Part shown: piece by piece, positions 2 to 64,000 of the stretch
How the letters are laid out: every line of letters starts with the position of its first letter
Numbering within the stretch: position 1 is the stretch's first letter
Made by a program: the position numbers and the translations under genes
Assembly: GCA_020631905.1 (NCBI GenBank)
Contig: JACKGQ010000001.1
Coordinates: 293,854-357,853, forward strand
Direction of reading: 5' to 3'
Length of the DNA: 64,000 nt
From: Candidatus Nomurabacteria bacterium
GTDB taxonomy: Bacteria > Patescibacteriota > Saccharimonadia > Saccharimonadales > VXPC01
The notes under the pieces: model-generated
Databases searched by the model: none
What the model was told of the DNA's origin: nothing
What the model saw: the letters and a program-made list of their open reading frames with translations, nothing else

Positions 2-502
2 CTAGATAGCGGCGATATAGAGGAGCAGGCTAATTTCTATGAACAATACTCCTTAAATGATTGTCTAGACAGGATGATTCGACTCAGCGATAGCCCTTGT
101 GGTGAGGCCGTCTTGGCGGCTTATGATTACGCTAGTGTTCAAAAACGTTTGCTGGCTCTCGGCATGCCAGATATTAATATGCCTGGATTTCAGGTTTCGG
201 CGGCCGACATGGCGGTGTTGCTTCAACATATTTACGATCATCAGTTAATACCCGAAACTAGCGCTCAGAGCTTACGTCAATCTATGCGTGAACAAATCTA
301 CGATAAAGGCCTTAAATCTGGTTTTAATATGTATCTGGTAGAAGATAAGGTAGGCTTTTCCGAAAACGGTGACTGGCATGATGTGGGTTTGGTGAAGGTA
401 GGTGATGATTACTTAATTGTTGCTGTTCTTAGCAACAAAGCTTATTCTGCTAATCTTGCCGGCTTAGCTACAAGCCTACAGAATACTCTCGAGAGCCTCT
501 AG
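2..502 (+). CDS. class A beta-lactamase-like serine hydrolase, C-terminal part (5' end cut by window edge)
   Basis: Frame of ORF 74..502 stays open back to nt 2. SDS (SDN-loop position) and KVG (KTG position) motifs occur in the expected order. Confidence 0.55.
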   Translation, partial: LDSGDIEEQANFYEQYSLNDCLDRMIRLSDSPCGEAVLAAYDYASVQKRLLALGMPDINMPGFQVSAADMAVLLQHIYDHQLIPETSAQSLRQSMREQIYDKGLKSGFNMYLVEDKVGFSENGDWHDVGLVKVGDDYLIVAVLSNKAYSANLAGLATSLQNTLESL

Positions 503-17786: not shown

Positions 17787-18287
17787 ATGCTATTTAAGAC
17801 AAGGGGAATGTTAATAATGACACCTAGGGCACTACAAAAAAACAAAGAAGGATTCACTATTATTGAGGTAATGATTGTTCTGGCGATTGCCGGCTTAATC
17901 ATCTTGATTGTATTTTTGGCCGTACCTGCGCTCCAACGCAATAGCCGTAACACTCAGCGTCGTAACGATGCCGCGAGAGTAAGCGGACTTCTGTCTGAGT
18001 ACACAACCAACAACAATGGTCGTTTACCAGCTAACTCGGCTGCACTACAGGCCTTGATCGGCACTCAGTTAAGTATTTACGATGTGACTTCGATCACCTT
18101 GGCCGCCGCAACCGAAGCTACTGGCAACGATGCGGCAGCTGCAGCCAGCAGTAACAGTACCGTAGTTGTTGTGTCCAATGCTACTTGTTCAGATAACAAC
18201 GCAGTTGCTGGTGGCGGGTCTCGAGCTTACACTGTAACCTTTGCAGTTGAAACCAGTGGTGGTGGCAGTACTGCCCAGTGCTTGTAA
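17787..18287 (+). CDS. pilA: type IV major pilin (prepilin); true start may be ATG 17808
   Basis: Class III signal KNKEG|FTIIEVMIVLAIAGLI with Glu at +5. Own promoter and strong terminator. Confidence 0.85.
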   Translation: MLFKTRGMLIMTPRALQKNKEGFTIIEVMIVLAIAGLIILIVFLAVPALQRNSRNTQRRNDAARVSGLLSEYTTNNNGRLPANSAALQALIGTQLSIYDVTSITLAAATEATGNDAAAAASSNSTVVVVSNATCSDNNAVAGGGSRAYTVTFAVETSGGGSTAQCL

Positions 18288-30127: not shown

Positions 30128-30322
30128 ACAAAAAAACAGCTCTTTTCAGAGCTGTTTTCTGCTATTTACGTGCGCGTCGCACGCGTTTTAATTGATTTGC
30201 AATGATTGTAGATGGCTCTAAGTCTTCATAAAAGAGCTTAAAACCTCCTAAAGTAGTTGCACTCAAAATTTACCTCATTTTTAATGCATAACCATTATAA
30301 CAAAAACGTGCAAATGTGTCAA
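30128..30322 (-). other. orphan transcription unit: consensus promoter + intrinsic terminator, sRNA or 34-aa sORF (30162..30266, TTG start)
   Basis: On the minus strand: TTGACA (30322-30317), 17-nt spacer, TATAAT (30299-30294). Hairpin 30155-30136 is followed by a T7 run. An internal ORF is preceded by GAGG. Confidence 0.5.
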
Positions 30323-50224: not shown

Positions 50225-50782
50225 CTAATTTCTCGAGAGCTTAGAGTAAGTTTTAATAATAAGCTCGATCAGTAGACCGATTAAGTACCCGCCCGCAAAC
50301 AGAATGATAAACAGACTTAGTCCTACCGAAAAACCACTCCGCTTTGCATAATATAAAACGATAATACTCCCAACGAAAGCACTTACGCCGCCAGTTAAGA
50401 TTGCGGTCGGTCTGGCGATTGTTTTGGCCGCAGTCTCACTTGTTCGCTCGACCAGGGGACGGTGAATAATTTTACTCATACCACGGTCCAACTTATTGAG
50501 TTTGCGCTGTGTGCTACGAAGGATGTTGCGGTATGTATGACTACGTAAAGCCGAGTTTGACCATGTTGGGGTTGGCTCAGATGATTCTGCAGAATGGGAC
50601 ATGTGTTCTTGGCTACTCTCGGCCAGTCTTGCAACTTCTCCTGAAAGATTGGCGACAGTTTCTTGGCTAGCTGGTAAGCTATTTTCACTCTCGTGTGTTT
50701 TTGGATTGTCGGCTTCGTGCCTTTCGGGTGATTTATGTTGTTCGCCCCGACTCTCTGGGCTGATAGGTGCTTTTTCCGACAT
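50225..50782 (-). CDS. membrane protein (185 aa): disordered acidic/His-rich N-half, two C-terminal TM helices
   Basis: Begins 2 nt after the stop of the LPXTG gene, so an operon is likely. Confidence 0.6.
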   Translation of the reverse strand: MSEKAPISPESRGEQHKSPERHEADNPKTHESENSLPASQETVANLSGEVARLAESSQEHMSHSAESSEPTPTWSNSALRSHTYRNILRSTQRKLNKLDRGMSKIIHRPLVERTSETAAKTIARPTAILTGGVSAFVGSIIVLYYAKRSGFSVGLSLFIILFAGGYLIGLLIELIIKTYSKLSRN

Positions 50783-50784
50783 TA

Positions 50785-52797
50785 CTACATTCCTCCTGAT
50801 ATATACTCAGTTTTTATAATATCGAGTTCTTTTGCCATTAATCTCGTTCTGTAATAGAAGTAGCCGATTACCATAAAGCCAGCGACGCTTAACACGACAA
50901 CTGTACCTGGTCCGGTACGCGGCAGATTACCAACAACGTTTTCGATCTGTTTGTCGACAGATTTAGGCAACCTAACGCGGACTGTCGTTCCAAATTGATT
51001 ATCTATCAGATTGTCGTAGCTGAGCGGATCGGATGCGGCAACAGGAGTTGAAGGGATAGGGTTTTTAACTCGCACCTTGAACGTCTTGCTTACGGATTCA
51101 CCCGGCTCTATATCTACAGGATCCCAGGTAAGTGTTAAGGCGATGCTATCGTACGCGGCACCACCATTATCGGTAATATCGGCATACTCTAAGATATCGG
51201 CAATATCGTCTCTAAAAACTTCGTTGGGGGCAGTTGCAGTACCATCATTTGCAGCCGTTAATGTAAACGCTAGTTCGTCGCCTGCGTGAGCAGTTTGACC
51301 ATTAGCGTTAGCGCCCGTACTGGTAAAGATAACAGATTTTCTTCTAGTAAGTATTGGGCTTAATTCCTCTGGCTTCTCGATGTCGAACACGACTTTACAT
51401 GTTGAGCTCTCGCGTACCTCACCTTTTTTGGCACTAATCTGAGCAGAAACTTCATGCTCGCCTTCGCTAAATGAATAACTTAGTTCGTCGGTGATTGCGT
51501 TCGCGGTAGTCTTGTGAGTAGCGATTTTTGATCCATCCGAGTAGTAGCTGACTGAGTTGAGTTCGGCACCTGGTTCTGCGGAAATAACTACTTGGAACAC
51601 ACGCGTATCCCAACCCTTTACTTCAGTAATCTTCAGCTCAGTACAAGCAATGTAGGCGACCGGTTCTGGTGGTGGAGGAGGGCAATCTTCATCGTAATCT
51701 ATAAATGAATCATTGCATGGTTTTGTACAATCATCGATTCCACCAGGGGGTATTGGTTTGCCCGACACAGGACAGACTGGTTCTTTTATTGTTATGCAGC
51801 GCTCGGTACTCGAATTATCTGATTTTATGCTGGCGTGGTTGTTGGCATTAAGCGTGGCAGAGTTGCAGGCTTCGATCGGGCCACTTATATCTTTAATTTT
51901 GATCTTTAAGACAATATAAGAGTAATCGGTTGCAGGAGCTAAGTTGGCAAATGTCCAAGTTAAAGTTTGATTGCTTTGAGTAAAAGTAGGCTGAGTCCGG
52001 GCAACAACAGATTGTGATACAAATTCGAATTGAGTTGGCAGTGAGTCGGTAATTGTTACATTTTCGGCAACAGCTGAGCCAGTGTTCCGGAAGTAAATTT
52101 TATAATCTGCAGTATCACCAGGTTCGAGTTCGCCGGCAGTTAATTTCTCTTTCTTTATTTCTAGCTTTGGTTTACGGTCAAACTGAACAAAAGTAATATT
52201 GCCACAACCATCAGCTGAAGAAGTCCAGGTGTTATCGATTAGAACCCAAAATTGTCGACCCTTCAATAAGCCGTTACCAGTTGCGATGCCTGTGATTGCC
52301 TTGTAGGGGTTATAGGCACTTTTAATGTCCCAGACCGTCAATGGTCTTTCATAGAAACTCGTAATAGCTCCTGGTATGGCCACTCTAACATTTTCTGATT
52401 GTCTTTGAGTTGATAGTTCACGACCAGTAGTAATAAAGTTTTTATCGGTAGACTTTATGTTTGCAATTGTCCCATTATTTATGTCGCTCTGAGTAATCCC
52501 ATAATAACCAAATATATTTTGAATATCTGTTCGTCCGAAGTCGTCGCGGTTATTGCTGTATGCGGACTGGATCTTTTGCTTAGAGGTGCCACCGGCAACC
52601 ACATTACTCGCGTGAGCAGCCAAAGTAGTTTTTGGTGGTGAAACAATTGCCAACATCTGCACCAACATCGCCAATGCAACCATTACAAATCCGATTCTGC
52701 GTATTGACTCCTCTTGGTGCAATCGTTTTGCGTAATAGCCAATTTCTGGCAGCAAACTAGGATTGAGAGGCAAGCTCGACACCAGTTTCTTAAACAT
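50785..52797 (-). CDS. LPXTG-anchored surface protein with DUF11-type repeat domain (670 aa)
   Basis: N-terminal signal/anchor. DUF11-like TADYKIYFRNTGSAVAENVTITDSLP. CPPPPPEP linker. C-terminal LPRTG plus hydrophobic helix plus RTR. Confidence 0.8.
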   Translation of the reverse strand: MFKKLVSSLPLNPSLLPEIGYYAKRLHQEESIRRIGFVMVALAMLVQMLAIVSPPKTTLAAHASNVVAGGTSKQKIQSAYSNNRDDFGRTDIQNIFGYYGITQSDINNGTIANIKSTDKNFITTGRELSTQRQSENVRVAIPGAITSFYERPLTVWDIKSAYNPYKAITGIATGNGLLKGRQFWVLIDNTWTSSADGCGNITFVQFDRKPKLEIKKEKLTAGELEPGDTADYKIYFRNTGSAVAENVTITDSLPTQFEFVSQSVVARTQPTFTQSNQTLTWTFANLAPATDYSYIVLKIKIKDISGPIEACNSATLNANNHASIKSDNSSTERCITIKEPVCPVSGKPIPPGGIDDCTKPCNDSFIDYDEDCPPPPPEPVAYIACTELKITEVKGWDTRVFQVVISAEPGAELNSVSYYSDGSKIATHKTTANAITDELSYSFSEGEHEVSAQISAKKGEVRESSTCKVVFDIEKPEELSPILTRRKSVIFTSTGANANGQTAHAGDELAFTLTAANDGTATAPNEVFRDDIADILEYADITDNGGAAYDSIALTLTWDPVDIEPGESVSKTFKVRVKNPIPSTPVAASDPLSYDNLIDNQFGTTVRVRLPKSVDKQIENVVGNLPRTGPGTVVVLSVAGFMVIGYFYYRTRLMAKELDIIKTEYISGGM

Positions 52798-52911
52798 ATG
52801 TTTCCCCCGTAATTTTCATGCTTATTTAAGCACGCATAAGCGTTATTGACAAGCATTAGGCTTGATTGGATAGCCTTTCGTGACGTATAATCTGCTAAAG
52901 TCAAAAATTAA

Positions 52912-54891
<1,980 letters not shown>

Positions 54892-54892
54892 A

Positions 54893-57436
54893 ATGGCAGA
54901 TATTGATGATCAACAACTAGACAACACGACTCCAGAACCAGAGGTAATCGAGGCAACCACCATTAACGGTGTCCGTCGTAGCAATATTACCGAGGTAATG
55001 GAAAGTAACTTTTTGCGCTATTCGATGAGCGTGATTATCGCACGGGCTTTGCCAGACGTACGCGATGGACTTAAGCCAGTACATCGTCGAATTCTATTCT
55101 CGATGAACCAAAACGGCATTCGCAGTAACGGTAAAACCATGAAATCGGCACGTATTGTTGGAGATGTCATGGGTAAATACCACCCACACGGCAATATGGC
55201 TATCTATGATGCTATGGCGCGTTTGGCTGTCGATTGGTCGACTCGCTATTTACTGATCACTGGGCAAGGAAACTTCGGAACAATGGATGGCGACCCGCCA
55301 GCAGCCGATAGGTACACCGAGGCCAAGCTAAACCGACATGCCGAAGAGTTGTTAGCAGACTTAGATAAAGAGACAGTTCCGTTTAGGGCAAACTACGATG
55401 GGACCGAACAAGAACCAGAAGTCTTACCAGCACGCCTACCAAACTTACTGCTTAATGGTCAAACGGGTATTGCTGTTGGTATGGCTACTAGTATTCCGCC
55501 ACATCACTTGGGCGAAGTTGTCGATGCAGTTGTCGAGATGATCGACAACCCAGATTACGAGCTGAGCGACTTGCTCAAACATATCAAGGGACCGGATTTT
55601 CCGACTGGAGGTATCGTTTATGGTGGTTCCAGCATGCAGGAAGCTTATGCAAGCGGTAAGGGTAGTGTAACTATCCGTGGCCGGGCCGTGATTGAGGAAC
55701 GCAACAAACAAGGAGCTCACCGTATTGTAATTACGGAGATTCCATACATGTTAAACATGAGTGCACTCGTCGAAAAGATGGCAGAGCTGGTCAATGACAA
55801 AAAGATTAATGGCGTTAGCGATATCCGTGACGAAAGCTCGCGAGGTGCGGTTAGAATAGTCGTCGATTTAAAGAAAGATGCCTATCCTAAAAAGATTTTA
55901 AATCAGCTATACAAACTTACGCCCCTACAATCTGCTTTTCATTACAACATGTTGGCCCTTGTCGATGGTATTCAACCAAGGGTGCTTGGCTTAACAGATA
56001 TACTTCATGAATATCTCAAGCATCGCCAGGCAGTTGTTCGCAGACGTACAGAGTTTGAGCTCAAGAAGGCCAAAGCTCGTGAACATATCCTCGAAGGTCT
56101 AAAGATCGCCCTCGATAATATCGACGAAGTAGTTAGGATTATTAGAGCAAGCGCAACGACTGATGAGGCTCGTGATAGTTTAATCAAGAAATTTAAGCTA
56201 AGCGAGATTCAAGCTAATTCAATCTTGGCTATGCCGTTACGCAGTCTGGTTGGCCTTGAACGCCAAAAAATCGAAGATGAACTAGCTCAGCTAAAAAAAT
56301 TAATTGCCGACTTAGAAGCTTTACTCGCCGACGAGAAAAAGATAACTCAGGTTGTGCGAAAAGAATTAATAGAACTCAAAGATAAATATAACGACGAACG
56401 CCGATCAGAAATTATCAACCAGGAGCTAGGTAAGTTTAGCGATGAAGAGCTGATTCCTAATGAACAGGTAGTTGTAACGCTTACAACATCTAATTACATT
56501 AAACGAAGCCCAGTTTCCGATTACAAACGCCAGGGTCGGGGTGGTAAAGGACGTCGTGGTATTGCCACTCGCGAAGAAGACTATGTAGACCAGATGTTGT
56601 TTGTCAGCACTCACGATTACATATTATTCTTCACCAACCGAGGTCGTGTATTTAGGATTAAAGCTTACGAAATACCAAACGCCAGCCTAAATGCCAAAGG
56701 CGTCGCAATTGTTAACCTATTGCAGCTTCAACCAGAGGAGACAATCAGTTCGATGTTTAAGATCGAAGCTGGCGGAAAACCTGAAGGCCATCTATTCATG
56801 TGCACCAAGAATGGTGTTGTCAAGAAGACAGCATATGACAAGTTCGAAAACGTACGTACGAGTGGTCTAATTGCGATTACTTTGGACGACGGGGATGAGC
56901 TCAAATGGATTCGCTTAAGTAGCGGAGACGAAGAGGTGGTAATCTCGACTGCTATGGGTCAAGCCATGCGCTTCCATGAAAGCCATGTACGCAGTATGGG
57001 ACGTAGTGCACGTGGCGTAAGAGGTATGAGACTTAGAAAAGATGACTATGTGATTGGAATGGATATTGTTCACGAAGATGCCTCGATATTTGTAATCAGT
57101 CGTAATGGTTACGGTAAGCGCACAAAGATTTCCCAGTTTACACCACACGCAAGAGGTGGGGTTGGCATTCGTTCGGCTGTAGTCAATAGTAAAACAGGCG
57201 AGCTGGTAGCTGTCCGAAGCCTCCGACCAGATGCAAACGAACTGATAGTAATCTCCGAGTCGGGGCAAACAATCCGGCTTGGCCTAAAAGATATTCCTGA
57301 GCTTAGTCGAGCTACCCAGGGTGTGCGAATCATGCGATTAAATGATGGTGACTATGTGGCCTCGGTTGTCACTGTCATGGAACCGCAAGAAGGCGACATC
57401 GACGATTCTGACTCAGGAGAAGCCAATGCTAGCTAA
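54893..57436 (+). CDS. gyrA: DNA gyrase subunit A
   Basis: DGLKPVHRRIL and YHPHGNMAIYDAM (QRDR). Catalytic-Tyr region AADRYTEA. GyrA-box QGRGGKG. Confidence 0.97.
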   Translation: MADIDDQQLDNTTPEPEVIEATTINGVRRSNITEVMESNFLRYSMSVIIARALPDVRDGLKPVHRRILFSMNQNGIRSNGKTMKSARIVGDVMGKYHPHGNMAIYDAMARLAVDWSTRYLLITGQGNFGTMDGDPPAADRYTEAKLNRHAEELLADLDKETVPFRANYDGTEQEPEVLPARLPNLLLNGQTGIAVGMATSIPPHHLGEVVDAVVEMIDNPDYELSDLLKHIKGPDFPTGGIVYGGSSMQEAYASGKGSVTIRGRAVIEERNKQGAHRIVITEIPYMLNMSALVEKMAELVNDKKINGVSDIRDESSRGAVRIVVDLKKDAYPKKILNQLYKLTPLQSAFHYNMLALVDGIQPRVLGLTDILHEYLKHRQAVVRRRTEFELKKAKAREHILEGLKIALDNIDEVVRIIRASATTDEARDSLIKKFKLSEIQANSILAMPLRSLVGLERQKIEDELAQLKKLIADLEALLADEKKITQVVRKELIELKDKYNDERRSEIINQELGKFSDEELIPNEQVVVTLTTSNYIKRSPVSDYKRQGRGGKGRRGIATREEDYVDQMLFVSTHDYILFFTNRGRVFRIKAYEIPNASLNAKGVAIVNLLQLQPEETISSMFKIEAGGKPEGHLFMCTKNGVVKKTAYDKFENVRTSGLIAITLDDGDELKWIRLSSGDEEVVISTAMGQAMRFHESHVRSMGRSARGVRGMRLRKDDYVIGMDIVHEDASIFVISRNGYGKRTKISQFTPHARGGVGIRSAVVNSKTGELVAVRSLRPDANELIVISESGQTIRLGLKDIPELSRATQGVRIMRLNDGDYVASVVTVMEPQEGDIDDSDSGEANAS

Positions 57437-57866
57437 TTCTTTAAGCCTAATCATTGTGGCAGCACTTGGTTATGGGGTTGCCCAGCTGATTAAGTTCGGT
57501 ATTTCGCTCCGCAAAGATGGCCTAGATATAGCTGATCTATTTGCATCGGGCGGGTGGCCCAGTTCGCATTCGGCAGTCATGGCGGCAACCTGTCTGCATA
57601 TAGGGTATATCGAAGGCTATTCGTCTACAGTATTTGGCTTGGCATTAGTTGTTACCCTGGTAGTTGTGTACGATTCAATTGGGGTTAGGCGGTCAACAGG
57701 CCTTAACACGCTTGCAATTATCAAGCTATCCAAAAAAGCAGGCATCAAGGATATTGAGCATGGTAATATCTTGGGGCGCGGACATACTCCATTTGAAGTA
57801 ATTGTCGGTCTACTGGTTGGCGTGGTTGTCGCACTTTTGTACCAAACACTCGTATCACAGGCGTAG
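57426..57866 (+). CDS. DUF212 (divergent PAP2 / acid-phosphatase-like) membrane protein
   Basis: GGWPSSHSA and YDSIGVRRSTG motifs. ATG 57426 chosen because the ORF-track start lies inside gyrA. Confidence 0.75.
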   Translation: MLANSLSLIIVAALGYGVAQLIKFGISLRKDGLDIADLFASGGWPSSHSAVMAATCLHIGYIEGYSSTVFGLALVVTLVVVYDSIGVRRSTGLNTLAIIKLSKKAGIKDIEHGNILGRGHTPFEVIVGLLVGVVVALLYQTLVSQA

Positions 57867-57883
57867 TAATATTATCTACGTTC

Positions 57884-57912
57884 TTGACAAGAATAACACT
57901 TTAGCGTAGTCT
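57884..57912 (+). promoter_or_regulatory. possible 16S rRNA promoter
   Basis: TTGACA (57884-57889), 17-nt spacer, TAGTCT (57907-57912). The -10 box is weak. Confidence 0.4.
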
Positions 57913-58108
57913 ACTTTAGTTCACGGGATGGTCAAAAAGTCTTCTTAACGAGCCACCAAATCGTTACGAGCCCGACTTTTGGTCTGAAAGTGAAACGAAC
58001 ATTGAAAACTTGGTTGTGTAATGTCAACGTTTAATTACTTTATTGTTTTGGTCTTGTACCAAATAAAGTTTTACAATTTGTAAATATTTTGAGTACGGAC
58101 CAAAACTT

Positions 58109-59579
<1,471 letters not shown>

Positions 59580-59840
59580 CTAGGGAGAAGATAACAATCC
59601 CGCTATCTCACTCTAGTGTTTCTCTGCGAGAGAACATTAGATAAGCGAGGATGGTCGATCCGATTTATGTATTAGTGGTTAACCAATACATAAACGTAGC
59701 ATTCGCTACAACGGATAGGTAACCAACTGCATGAACGAGCAGTATAATAAACGACATTACACAACCAAGAGTTCAATATGAGGGGAGGTGATTCCTCCTC
59801 TAGTCGGCATAAATGTCTGCTCTCCTCCCAAAGAGGAATA

Positions 59841-59871
59841 AAAATACCCGGATTCACTCCGGGTATTTTTA
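59841..59871 (+). terminator. intrinsic terminator downstream of 16S
   Basis: AAAAATACCCGG / CCGGGTATTTTT 12-bp stem with a U-run. Confidence 0.75.
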
Positions 59872-59927
59872 TGCACAAACAGATACTCATAATAATTAAC
59901 CATCTGTGTTCGTGTTAGCATATTATT

Positions 59928-60383
59928 ATGAAAAAGGAAGGATATGAGGACTTGAAGCGACCAAATATAGAAATAGGTGAATCACCAATACAGGGCAAAG
60001 GTCTTTTTGCTAAAGAGTTTATCCCGGCGGGTAGTGAAATTATATTCCCTCCGGCACTACCAGATGATACTATCCGGGCTTTAGGCACAGAAGAATTCCA
60101 TAAATATTTGGATGAGCTTCGTGCGAAGGGTATTGAATGGAACTCTATTTCTAATGGTGACGGAACTCATACTGTGAGCACTGCACCGAGAGAAAACGAC
60201 CCAAGTAATTATGGCAATCACAGTTGCGACCCTAACAATGATGGCAAAGGACATGCTCTTCGCGATATTGAAGCTGGTGAAGAGATAACGGTTGATTATG
60301 CACAGTTTAGTGATAAGAGTTGGTCCATGCCTTGTAATTGTGGAGCCGCTAATTGCACCGGTATAGTACGTGGGACTGTTTAA
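59928..60383 (+). CDS. SET-domain protein lysine methyltransferase (151 aa)
   Basis: GKGLFA, NHSCDPN, GEEITVDY and post-SET CNCGAANC motifs, all in canonical order. TAGCAT lies 6 nt before the ATG. Confidence 0.85.
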   Translation: MKKEGYEDLKRPNIEIGESPIQGKGLFAKEFIPAGSEIIFPPALPDDTIRALGTEEFHKYLDELRAKGIEWNSISNGDGTHTVSTAPRENDPSNYGNHSCDPNNDGKGHALRDIEAGEEITVDYAQFSDKSWSMPCNCGAANCTGIVRGTV

Positions 60384-60445
60384 TTTTTTGCCAAAGTAAC
60401 GATTAACAGGTAAAATACTTCGGTCTTCGTAAGTTTTTAGCTTAC

Positions 60446-60572
60446 CCAAATTCAAACCTGTTTGAATTTGATAGGAACAACAATGACCTGCCAGACTAGT
60501 ACTTTTGCCACTTGTTTGCAAAAGTAGTGATCTGGCAGTCGTCATTGACTGAGACGAGGGGCTGTAGCTCAG
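60446..60572 (+). repeat. 127-nt structured repeat, copy 1 (runs into the first 15 nt of tRNA-Ala)
   Basis: Identical to 60718..60844 except for 2 substitutions. Contains hairpin TTCAAACCTGTTTGAA and a long imperfect hairpin TGCCAGA..TACTTTTGC/GCAAAAGTA..TCTGGCA. Confidence 0.95.
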
Positions 60573-60634
60573 TTGGCTAGAGCACCTGCTTTGCAAGCAG
60601 GGGGTCCGGGGTTCGAGTCCCCGCAGCTCCACCA
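60558..60634 (+). tRNA. tRNA-Ala (UGC)
   Basis: G3:U70 identity pair, anticodon loop UUUGCAA, encoded CCA. Confidence 0.93.
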
Positions 60635-60717
60635 GATGTACATAAATATTTTGTGTACTGAATGGGGCCGGATAACCTTCGGGTTAACCGGTTCCACCAA
60701 GAGACTTAAAAATACAA

Positions 60718-60844
60718 CCAAATTCAAACCTGTTTGAATTTGAGAGGAACAGCAATGACCTGCCAGACTAGTACTTTTGCCACTTGTTTGCAAAAGTAGT
60801 GATCTGGCAGTCGTCATTGACTGAGACGAGGGGCTGTAGCTCAG
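60718..60844 (+). repeat. 127-nt structured repeat, copy 2 (runs into the first 15 nt of tRNA-Ile)
   Basis: Direct repeat of 60446..60572 at a 272-nt period. Confidence 0.95.
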
Positions 60845-60906
60845 CTGGTTAGAGCGCGTCACTGATAATGACGAGGTCGGTGGTTCAAGTCCTCCCAGCC
60901 CCACCA
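60830..60906 (+). tRNA. tRNA-Ile (GAU)
   Basis: Anticodon loop CUGAUAA, GTTCAAGT T-loop, encoded CCA. Confidence 0.93.
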
Positions 60907-61794
60907 CCGTTGAATCACAAAAAAAGTTGACAGTTAATCGTCGTTATTATTACATCGTCTAGTCTTTACAAACAGTAGTAATTTTGTTAGGATTTGTTGG
61001 TGTCTACAGAGTACAGACATTAATTCACTGAGGTAGGGTGAAGACATGCTTGTACTTTGGCTAGTTAATCCTTTGCGAGGACCTATTGCTAAAGTCGTAA
61101 ATTAACAATTTATTATTGTGTGACAAACGGTTGTTCCTGACCTGTTTTGATTTATAAAAACACCAGAAACAAACCATTTGCACATTCACAAAAAGTTACA
61201 CAAGCGCACATAAAGAATGCCTTGACGCAAAATACCGAAGAAGGACGTAGCAGGCTGCGATAAGCTGCGGGGAGCTGCCAAACAAGCTTTGAACCGTAGA
61301 TTTCCGAATGGGGAAACCCAGCTAGAGTCATGTCTAGTTACCACTGTATGAACTTTTGATAGTACAGTAGGCGGTAAGTTCCCGAACTGAAACATCTTAG
61401 TAGGGAGAGGAATAGAAAGTAACCAACGATTCTCGGAGTAGTGGCGAGCGAAACGGGAATAGCCCAAACTTTTTAAGTTTTTGCCTGTTAATTCAGGCGA
61501 ATAAGTTGACAGACGAATGCTTAAAAGGGGTTGTGAGATATAAATACCCATGTCTGGGTGCTCGATTTAGAGCGACCAGATATGGAGACAAGAGCTGTTA
61601 ATCTTGTATAAAGTTACAAATTGCAATGCGAGTAGAATCAGCTGGAAAGCTGAGCCATAGACAGTGATAGCCTGGTATACAAAGTTATTGCAACTTTATC
61701 ATTTATATCTCGAGTAAGGCGGGGCACGAGAAACCCTGTTTGAATCTGGGACGACCACGTTCCAAGGCTAAATATATTTTGCGATCGATAGCGT

Positions 61795-61828
<34 letters not shown>

Positions 61829-63035
61829 GGAAGGGGAGTGAAATAGAGTCTGAAATTGTGTGCGTACAAGGAGTCGGAGCCTTCGGGTGACGGCGTGCTT
61901 TTTGTAGAACGATCCAGCGAGTTACTGTATCTTGGCAAGCTTAATCCATTTTGGAGTAGGCATAGTGAAAGCGAGCCTTAAGTGGGCGTTTAGTCGGATG
62001 CAGTAGACCCGAAACCGGGTGACCTAGCCATGAGCAGGTTGAAGCGCAGGTAAGACTGCGTGGAGGACCGAACCATTGTATGTTGCAATATACTTGGATG
62101 ACTTGTGGTTAGCGGAGAAATTCCAATCGAACTCGGAGATAGCTGGTTCTCCTCGAAATAGCTTTAGGGCTAGCGTCGTGTAGTAGCATATAGGGGTAGA
62201 GCTCTGTTTCGGACTGGGGCCTTCATCGGTACCCACCCTTGATAAACTACGAATACTATATGTGTAATCACGGCAGTCAGAACATCGGTGCTAAGGTCGA
62301 TGCTCAAAAGGGAAACAGCCCAGACCTTCGTCTAAGGTCCCTAAATAAACACTCAGTGGGAAACGAGGTGAGATTTCATAAACAGCGAGGATGTTGGCTT
62401 AGAAGCAGCCATTCATTTAAAGAGTGCGTAACAGCTCACTCGTCAAGAGATCTTGCGCGGAAAATTTAACGGGGCTTAAGTGTTTTACCGAAGACAAGGA
62501 TTAATATTTTAATATTAGTGGTAGAGGAGCGTTCCTATCTGCGTTGAAGGTGTGTCGTGAGGCATGCTGGAGCGTTAGGAAGTGAGAATGCTGGAATGAG
62601 TAACTTTAAGATATGTGAGAATCATATCCGCCGAAAGAGCGAGGTTTCCTGGGCAACGATAATCGTCCCAGGGTTAGTCGGTCCTAAGTCGAGGCGAGTA
62701 GCGTAGACGATGGACATCAGGTTAATATTCCTGAACTAGTAGTGGTGTTGTGAGTAAGTGCGCGGCATGGTAGCGAGAGCAGATTAATGGTATATCTGTC
62801 TAAGTGCGTAGTCCTTCGGGGTGAAACACGAATGCAACTGTCCTTTTAGGACGGGAGTCCCGTGAGCCAAGCTGACTAGAAAAGCATATTCACTTATAAC
62901 CACTTCTATCCGTACCGCAAACCGACACAGGTGCTCAGGTCGAGTAGACCAAGGCGTACGAGAGAACCTTTGCTAAGGAACTCGGCAATACAGCGACCGT
63001 AACTTCGGGATAAGGTCTGCCCTGTGGGGTGCGCT

Positions 63036-63376
63036 AAGCGCAAGTATTGCACAACGAGTACCTCACATCTGTTCACTAGCCTAGATCACATCTGAAAGGC
63101 TGCAAAAATATTTTTCTTTTTCAATATAACTACAGTTATGTTTCAAAAGCAGAAATATCTTTTCGCACATTCATATGCAATCTAGGGTTAGCAACCAGAT
63201 GCGAGGTACTCGTTAGAGTAAATAGCAGTAACAATTTGTGAATGTCTTCGTAAGAAGACTACAATCGAGAAATCAACTATCTAGTAATAGATAGCTTGAG
63301 ACAGAAATAACATATTCTATGAACCAACAGGTTTTATGGATAGTTGCTATTTGCGTATGCAAATATTACTTGAGTT
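63036..63376 (+). other. about 340-nt AT-rich insertion at the tip of the helix-63-equivalent of 23S
   Basis: GGGGTGCGCTA (63025-63035) pairs with TAGCGTGCCCC (63377-63387). E. coli has about 30 nt between the equivalent strands. The insert forms long internal hairpins and has no ORF. Confidence 0.8.
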
Positions 63377-63530
63377 TAGCGTGCCCCGTGGGGCCGCAGC
63401 TAAAGAGCCCATGCAACTGTTTACTAAAAACATAGGTCTCTGCAAACACGAAAGTGGAAGTATAGGGGCTGACGCCTGCCCGGTGCTGGAAGGTTAAGGG
63501 GAGAACTTTACGGTTTGAACTGAAGCCCCA

Positions 63531-63616
<86 letters not shown>

Positions 63617-63842
63617 GTGGGCACTGTCTCAGCAAAGGACTCGGTGAAAGTGCATTGGCGGTAAAGATGCCGTCTGTCCGCACCAGGACGAAAAGACCCC
63701 GTGGAGCTTTACTACAGCTTGGCATTGAGCCGAGCGTATACATGTGTAGCATAGGTGGGAGACTTTGAAGCAGATGCGCTAGCGTTTGTGGAGTCATCAG
63801 TGAAATACCACCCTTGTGTACGCTTTGTTCTTGACCTGGCCC

Positions 63843-64000
63843 TCAAAGTGTAGAAAATACTTTGAAAGCCAAGTTTTAAGACCAAGGTAGCCTAAACAAT
63901 TAGGCAGTATTGTGAAACAGCTATAACATCCATGTCCTAATCACATCGATGACATCGAGAGTGGTGGTTATAGCAAAAATACTTTTTAAGTATTTGTTAG
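63843..64000 (+). other. second interruption of 23S conservation (insertion or intron, incomplete)
   Basis: After GTTCTTGACCTGGCCC the expected ...GACAGTGTCTGGTGGGTAGTTTGACTGGGGCGG does not appear before the window ends. The sequence is AT-rich with local hairpins. Confidence 0.65.

Follow-up and report, generated by a model that had tools for sequence, protein, structure and literature searches.

A SET-domain methyltransferase gene in the 16S-23S spacer of a Saccharibacteria ribosomal RNA locus

The SET gene and its setting

Near the right end of a 64,000-nucleotide stretch of a Saccharibacteria genome (Candidatus Nomurabacteria bacterium, contig JACKGQ010000001.1; the whole stretch is called the window here), a gene for a predicted protein-lysine methyltransferase of the SET class is located between the 16S ribosomal RNA (rRNA) gene and the first spacer transfer RNA (tRNA) gene. 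The locus reads 16S, SET gene, tRNA-Ala, tRNA-Ile and 23S on the plus strand, with 5S following beyond the window (Table 1), and 16S and 23S are separated by 1,609 nucleotides (nt; 59579 to 61189). An earlier reading of the same DNA, referred to as the original prediction, had described an open reading frame (ORF) of 151 amino acids (aa) on the rRNA strand between the 16S 3' end (59579) and tRNA-Ala (60558), and the ORF is present there, at 59928-60383 (+). The SET gene and the spacer tRNA genes are placed between the processing stems of 16S and 23S. The 3' strand of the 16S stem is upstream of both the SET gene and the hairpin discussed below, which puts the gene outside the 16S precursor stem, and the partner of the 23S stem (5563-5609 of contig L001, see below) sits just past the 23S 3' end. 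An rRNA intron or homing-endonuclease insertion was considered and rejected, since the SET gene is outside both rRNA genes and both stems and its product has no endonuclease domain.

The translation contains the SET hallmarks in the order given by the original prediction, QGKGLFA, GNHSCDPN and GEEITVDY, then CNCGAANC. The Pfam SET family (PF00856) matches residues 23-124 of the ORF with E = 5.8e-12 and 46.4 bits, where the cut-off is 22.4; of the 105 profile positions, 1-104 are aligned, and the Pfam search gives no second domain. The resemblance is much greater than chance would produce: searching a protein database yields 204 homologues at E <= 1e-3, of which 36 were put into an alignment; the nearest homologue is 54% identical. 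The columns of the S-adenosylmethionine (SAM) binding motif (GxG, here G23-K-G25), the NHSCxPN motif (N97-H-S-C100-D-P102-N) and the ExxxDY motif (E119-I-T-V-D123-Y124, with Tyr124 as the catalytic tyrosine) are invariant or nearly so in the 36 aligned homologues, and the post-SET cysteine cluster CxCxxxxC (C136-N-C138-GAAN-C143) is invariant across them together with C100. The cluster would form a zinc site with C100, the cysteine of the NHSC motif, and these four cysteines align to the post-SET region of MLL1. No solved structure is closer in sequence than the SET domain of MLL1 (E = 2.9e-14, about 30% identity). The AlphaFold2 model has a mean predicted local distance difference test score (pLDDT) of 79.9; every one of the top 50 Foldseek matches in the PDB is a SET domain, and MLL1, the closest of them, has probability 1.0 and a template modelling (TM) score of 0.62. 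MLL1 (KMT2A; PDB 2w5z, 7u5v), which shares the NHSCxPN, ExxxDY and post-SET CxCxxxxC motifs with the window protein, is a eukaryotic histone H3 lysine 4 (H3K4) enzyme that needs WRAD partners, whereas the window protein has no flanking domains. The product is predicted to be a stand-alone, SAM-dependent protein-lysine methyltransferase.

The reading frame is intact, and by Pfam, motifs and predicted fold it is a complete SET/post-SET enzyme gene with a predicted catalytic function. Codon usage ranks the gene 55 of 56 window genes for fit to the genome, among the best fitting, its GC content is 0.43 against a mean of 0.444, and neither measure gives a foreign signature. Because the invariant residues are kept at 54% identity, and because codon usage and GC content fit the genome, the gene appears intact, probably functional and free of signs of recent foreign origin. 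No canonical ribosome-binding site is evident at the ATG, and an alternative in-frame TTG start at 59952, which would give a protein of 143 aa, is preceded by AAGGAAGGA, a good ribosome-binding site; homologues align from about residue 9-12 and the SET domain runs from about residue 13 to the C-terminus. A survey of Shine-Dalgarno sites in 56 ORFs (14 positive) was not used, as the ORF starts are probably unreliable. Two ORFs on the opposite strand overlap the SET and tRNA genes, at 60081-60632 (-; 183 aa) and 60569-60907 (-; 112 aa), and are almost certainly spurious.

The original prediction had called for a chimeric assembly of the rRNA locus to be excluded. In such an artefact the 16S flank and the SET-tRNA-23S flank would come from different loci or organisms. 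Short-read assemblies do break within 16S. Contig L001 of a metagenome-assembled genome (MAG; NCBI, GCA_020428525.1) corresponds to window positions 59334-64000 and runs on through the complete 23S and 5S genes, and the left contig of the MAG, L222, corresponds to positions 50278-58281. From 59522 on, L001 does not differ from the window at all; the 27 differences between them all fall in one 16S helix (59460-59521) and reflect either microheterogeneity among strains or the joining of two strains where the contig ends. Against these two openings for an artefact stand the independently assembled L001 and two Logan contigs, which join the 16S 3' end to the SET gene and on to the tRNA (tRNA-Ala in the Logan contigs), the identity of L001 and window from 59522 on, and the close likeness of the hairpin after 16S to that of the closest relative. 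The 16S processing stem bridges the break itself, with the leader strand (58001-58025) on the left contig and its complementary partner (59753-59777) on the right one. The two flanks belong to one locus on this evidence, which makes an assembly artefact extremely improbable and effectively excludes a chimera.

Terminator-like and promoter-like elements around the gene

A hairpin overlooked in the original prediction lies between 16S and the SET gene, at 59838-59872, with an A-tract on its 5' side, a T-tract on its 3' side and a folding free energy (dG) of -26.5 kcal/mol (z = -7.1). The window contains six perfect hairpins of terminator type. The other five are all intergenic and four are at gene 3' ends: two follow genes ending at 18287 and 40656, two are placed between convergent pairs (41656 and tRNA-Pro; 42626 and 43052), and the fifth, at 30133, lies between divergent ORFs. 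By its form, the hairpin after 16S is the ordinary bidirectional intrinsic terminator of this genome, with predicted termination activity.

Comparison with related loci supports this assignment. Species-representative genomes scanned with a 16S 3'-end pattern gave 120 loci; 64 of these are Saccharibacteria-like and extend for 600 nt or more past 16S. By a centre-out inverted-repeat scan, validated on the window, a hairpin of terminator type starts 143-246 nt (median 171) after 16S in 41 of the 64, and counts per 100-nt bin over the 1200 nt after 16S run 0, 39, 5, 0, 3, 1, 2, 0 and so on. Among loci that include 600 nt or more of 16S, L052 is the closest relative by that gene; its hairpin has nearly the same sequence as that of the window, and in both L052 and L021 the 16S gene (+) and tRNA genes (-) converge on the hairpin. 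The conserved position, the likeness to L052 and the convergence in L052 and L021 together suggest that the hairpin is ancestral, terminator-like and separate from the insertion of the SET gene.

On the other side of the gene, 5 nt past its stop codon, starts a sigma-70-type promoter-like site, TTGCCA-17-TAAAAT (60388-60416), which matches the consensus at 10 of 12 positions and is the best site in 57500-61400. Four relatives (L088, L121, L113 and L045) carry TTGNNN-17-TACAAT only 7-14 nt after the hairpin; the -35 element begins with TTGC in the first three and is TTGAAA in L045. A motif of the form TTGNNN-16..18-TANNNT within 100 nt after the hairpin is found in 16 of 41 loci, compared with 5.2 +/- 1.9 in shuffled sequences and 7.5% of other windows. 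The interval between terminator and promoter is thus 515 nt in the window and 7-14 nt in the closer relatives, and in the window it holds the SET ORF and nothing else, apart from flanks of 55 nt on the 5' side and 4 nt on the 3' side.

The arrangement is probably best explained if the SET gene is a single-gene accessory cargo, situated in a short interval that divides the rRNA locus into two halves, each transcribed on its own. The ancestral order would have been 16S, processing stem, terminator, promoter, tRNAs, 23S and 5S, that is, two units a few nt apart. The 16S unit would end at the hairpin, upstream of the SET gene, and the site at 60388-60416, immediately downstream of it, would start the tRNA-Ala/tRNA-Ile/23S/5S unit. 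A gene inserted between the units would be insulated from the 16S promoter and would not be driven by the second promoter. Its transcripts would most likely come from read-through of the 16S terminator, from a weak promoter in the 55-nt flank, or from both, and an extended -10-like element, TGTTAGCAT, at 59913-59921 and 6 nt 5' of the ATG, is a possible candidate for such a promoter. As the message would have no terminator of its own, it would run into tRNA-Ala, where cleavage by RNase P would set its 3' end. The original prediction ascribed the expression of the gene to the most active locus of the cell, an expectation that loses its footing when the gene stands behind a conserved post-16S terminator hairpin and ahead of a putative promoter of the tRNA-23S-5S unit.

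The same prediction allowed for co-transcription of the gene with the spacer tRNAs and 23S. In the fuller form of this idea the locus is a single operon, in which the SET gene would be co-transcribed with 16S, the tRNAs and 23S from the rRNA promoter, its mRNA freed by RNase III and RNase P and its expression tied to rRNA synthesis; the hairpin would then be a processing or stability element, or would be overridden by antitermination. All the genes are indeed on one strand, and the absence of a terminator between the SET stop (60383) and the tRNAs and 23S, as the prediction had stated, is borne out by the plus-strand scan. Processing could release the SET message from its place between the 16S and 23S stems, the gene has no clear promoter of its own, and its codon usage is strongly biased to genome-preferred codons. 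A single operon is nevertheless unlikely, because the hairpin has the exact form of the gene-end terminators of this genome, serves convergent units in L052 and L021, and is followed in relatives by a promoter motif. Moreover, 23S is not nearby in 15 of the 51 relatives that are informative for spacer length, and 16S would therefore be transcribed and terminated on its own in Saccharibacteria.

The gene might instead be a passenger that is silent or in decay, having landed where nothing is transcribed, and without function in the genome. This would fit a position between terminator and promoter, the lack of an evident promoter or of a canonical ribosome-binding site at the ATG, and the restriction to one strain-level lineage. 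Such a passenger would not be expected to keep an intact reading frame, every family-invariant residue at about 50% identity to its nearest homologues, codon usage among the best adapted in the window and a TTG start with the good ribosome-binding site AAGGAAGGA, and this explanation is held to be quite improbable.

Several points weigh against cargo between two transcription units. The functions of terminator and promoter are read from sequence form, position and conservation only, and no more than 39% of the relatives' loci show a recognisable promoter motif. A consensus scan of 59873-59927 gives no convincing plus-strand promoter for the SET gene. rRNA antitermination could carry transcription through the hairpin and so place the SET gene within one long pre-rRNA. 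At lengths of 600 nt or more, 16S matches reach 93% at most, and no homologue of the flanking DUF212 gene exceeds 45% identity. No empty site is found at the nucleotide level: the non-coding spacer aligned with none of about 110 loci, in which only the tRNAs and the start of 23S align. Since the collections hold neither a close relative nor an empty site, the insertion is deduced from the architecture. A 17-nt repeat (59831 and 60699, 82% identical) was examined as a target-site duplication and is most likely a chance match.

On its own the SET gene is of little weight, being one more accessory gene in a lineage with gene-filled rRNA spacers. The architecture, a conserved post-16S terminator and a pre-tRNA promoter, weighs more. 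It suggests that 16S and tRNA-23S-5S are separate transcription units across Saccharibacteria, even where the genes look linked. If true, separate transcription of 16S and 23S-5S would explain why the spacer tolerates cargo and rearrangement, why full-operon amplicons from Saccharibacteria are long, and why 16S-ITS-23S typing (ITS, internal transcribed spacer) will often fail in them. A position "inside" an rRNA locus is no ground to assume high expression of a gene.

Table 1. Features of the window locus, with the cargo-bearing spacers of related loci (window coordinates unless stated otherwise)
Feature	Position or loci	Strand	Details
16S processing stem, 5' (leader) strand	58001-58025	+	25 nt, 92% complementary to 59753-59777
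16S rRNA gene	58109-59579	+	Rfam SSU_rRNA_bacteria, 1483.5 bits, full length
16S processing stem, 3' strand	59753-59777	+	inverted repeat with 58001-58025
Putative post-16S bidirectional intrinsic-terminator hairpin, ATAAAAATACCCGGA-loop-TCCGGGTATTTTTAT	59838-59872	unstranded	perfect 15-bp stem
5' flank of SET gene, 55 nt	59873-59927	+	candidate weak own promoter
Predicted SET/post-SET protein-lysine methyltransferase gene	59928-60383	+	ORF, 151 aa, ATG start, 456 nt
Sigma-70-type promoter-like site, TTGCCA-17-TAAAAT	60388-60416	+	candidate promoter of tRNA-23S-5S unit
Structured leader copy 1, before tRNA-Ala	60446-60557	+	direct repeat
tRNA-Ala (TGC)	60558-60634	+	ARAGORN, Rfam
Structured leader copy 2, before tRNA-Ile	60718-60829	+	direct repeat
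tRNA-Ile (GAT)	60830-60906	+	ARAGORN, Rfam
23S processing stem, 5' strand	61107-61179	+	61107-61121 and 61156-61179 (L001 1774-1788 and 1823-1846) pair with L001 5563-5609
23S rRNA gene	61189-64000	+	Rfam; cut by window end, complete on L001, then 5S
PyrD-bearing spacers	L014, L023, L065, L090, L116, L124, L129		
Three-gene-cargo spacers	L037, L077, L081, L087, L122, L126		about 4.0-4.6 kb, no tRNAs

Cargo in the rRNA spacers of related bacteria

Protein genes inside rRNA spacers were taken to be rare by the original prediction. This may hold for bacteria at large; it does not hold for Saccharibacteria, in which about 80% of the sampled species loci have gene-sized 16S-23S intervals. Among the 51 informative species-level loci used for the spacer-length count, 23S starts within 1 kb of 16S in four, at 1-1.5 kb in five and at 1.5-5 kb in 27, and is absent within at least 3 kb in the 15 mentioned above. 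The comparison of related rRNA loci, which the original prediction had proposed, reveals ORFs in the long spacers; most of them are on the rRNA strand, and most follow the tRNAs. In seven loci a PyrD-like dihydroorotate dehydrogenase gene (379-398 aa, Pfam DHO_dh, E = 1e-55) is located between the spacer tRNAs and 23S, and six other loci share a cargo of three genes, encoding a 256-265-aa protein, a 418-aa AAA_14/DUF4143 ATPase and a 406-409-aa repeat-rich protein that has no Pfam match and is truncated to 225 aa in L037 (Table 1). Further cargo includes an S8 subtilase, a HopA1-like protein and several unknowns.

Protein genes in the 16S-23S interval have already been described for bacteria of the Candidate Phyla Radiation (CPR; PMC8172020), and in a survey of long-read amplicons no group had a larger ITS than Saccharibacteria (PMC10402275). 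rRNA genes are called unlinked when more than 1,500 bp separate the two (Brewer et al. 2020, cited in PMC10402275 and PMC8172020, with the criterion quoted in the former); with its 1,609 nt the window locus belongs to this class. It resembles the class C CPR locus of Lui et al. 2021 (PMC8172020), with 16S, a protein gene, tRNAs, 23S and 5S on one strand, and it shares with the CPR spacer-gene loci a spacer above 1,500 bp in a small-genome CPR bacterium. The typical cargo there is a homing endonuclease, whereas here it is a SET methyltransferase, and the SET gene precedes the tRNAs, in contrast to most Saccharibacteria cargo, which follows them. What is new in the window is therefore the cargo gene; the kind of locus is a known one. 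The searchable literature gave no description of a terminator and promoter pair flanking spacer cargo.

Other features of these loci are variable. The order of the spacer tRNAs is Ala-Ile or Ile-Ala; tRNA-Val is present as well in many loci, and in some the spacer lacks tRNA genes altogether. Spacer tRNAs are inverted in L052 (179-399 nt after 16S) and L021 (162-455 nt), and L053 has three inverted tRNAs, yet 23S on the plus strand; rearrangements around the post-16S hairpin are frequent. In the window, the 112-nt leaders in front of tRNA-Ala and tRNA-Ile are 98% identical, with only these two copies present, and the region 60417-60557 folds into a very stable structure of several hairpins (dG -51.8 kcal/mol, z = -6.3). 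The duplicated leader was found in none of the relatives' loci, which points to a recent local duplication or gene conversion. The 23S gene is 3,589 nt long against a model of 2,925 positions, and two insertions (63026-63387, and 63833-64000 extending to about 64085 on L001) explain the excess. In relatives these insertions vary or are missing; neither includes a long ORF or gives an Rfam intron match at gathering score.

The SET family and its possible function

Saccharibacteria are host-dependent epibionts, and their hosts are bacteria without histones. No histone substrate for the window protein is known in the Saccharibacteria system. The homologues include proteins in records named Ktedonobacteraceae and Dormibacteraeota, both of them free-living. 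The original prediction drew an analogy with the Chlamydia and Legionella effectors that methylate host proteins, and by analogy with Chlamydia NUE and Legionella RomA/LegAS4 the window protein would be secreted and would methylate proteins of the host cell. Among the bacterial SET proteins that have been characterised, host-directed effectors predominate (PMC3980110). The gene is strain-specific cargo of an epibiont, and NUE, RomA/LegAS4 and Burkholderia BtSET likewise present a SET catalytic domain in a host-associated bacterium. The protein is a bare 151-aa domain that begins at about residue 13, too early for a signal or targeting region to fit in front of it, and neither its length nor the Pfam search reveals a secretion or translocation signal or an extra targeting domain. 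No secretion genes are among its window neighbours, the host is not a eukaryote and offers no histones, and family members occur under free-living names. The analogy is weak, and a role as secreted effector is distinctly unlikely.

Small SET/post-SET lysine methyltransferases of prokaryotes provide another parallel. Methanosarcina mazei Go1-SET and Bacillus anthracis BaSET (PMC3980110) also have a single domain of about 150 aa, with canonical SAM-binding and catalytic motifs and a patchy phylogenetic distribution, a likeness drawn from their description. The family of the window protein has no NCBIfam model. The literature search found no paper on SET proteins in Saccharibacteria. It can be imagined that rRNA loci split by the conserved terminator and promoter are a lineage-wide landing site for accessory genes, that such genes would be expressed by terminator read-through from the strongest promoter of the cell and thereby coupled to growth rate, and that the SET product would methylate a component of translation or a protein of the host cell; this combination is speculative and has a low likelihood.

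The window gene is confined to one strain-level lineage, and no rRNA is found beside SET-family genes in 80 metagenomic, 11 viral and 7 further loci. Viral contigs encode distant SET proteins only, with at most 36% identity, and NCBIfam, PADLOC and PHROGs gave no matches and so no sign of a phage or defence origin. In one Saccharibacteria sub-lineage (L004-L010), homologues of about 51% identity are part of an operon of overlapping genes, GNAT-(NUDIX)-SET-172 aa, which is convergent with genes for an AAA_33/zeta-like kinase and an ABC-F ATPase and adjoins a serine recombinase (L004-L006) or BREX genes (L007). The region looks like a mobile resistance or defence island. A function deduced by association was rejected, since the cassette occurs in L004-L010 only and the window lacks its partner genes; it is a lead at most.

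No recurrent neighbour is shared by the other SET-family loci, and the family behaves as a mobile, stand-alone accessory gene. In two of these loci a SET homologue starts 43-78 nt 3' of tRNA genes, tRNA-Phe and tRNA-Gly in L134 and tRNA-Arg in L141, which may hint that SET genes tend to land beside tRNA genes.

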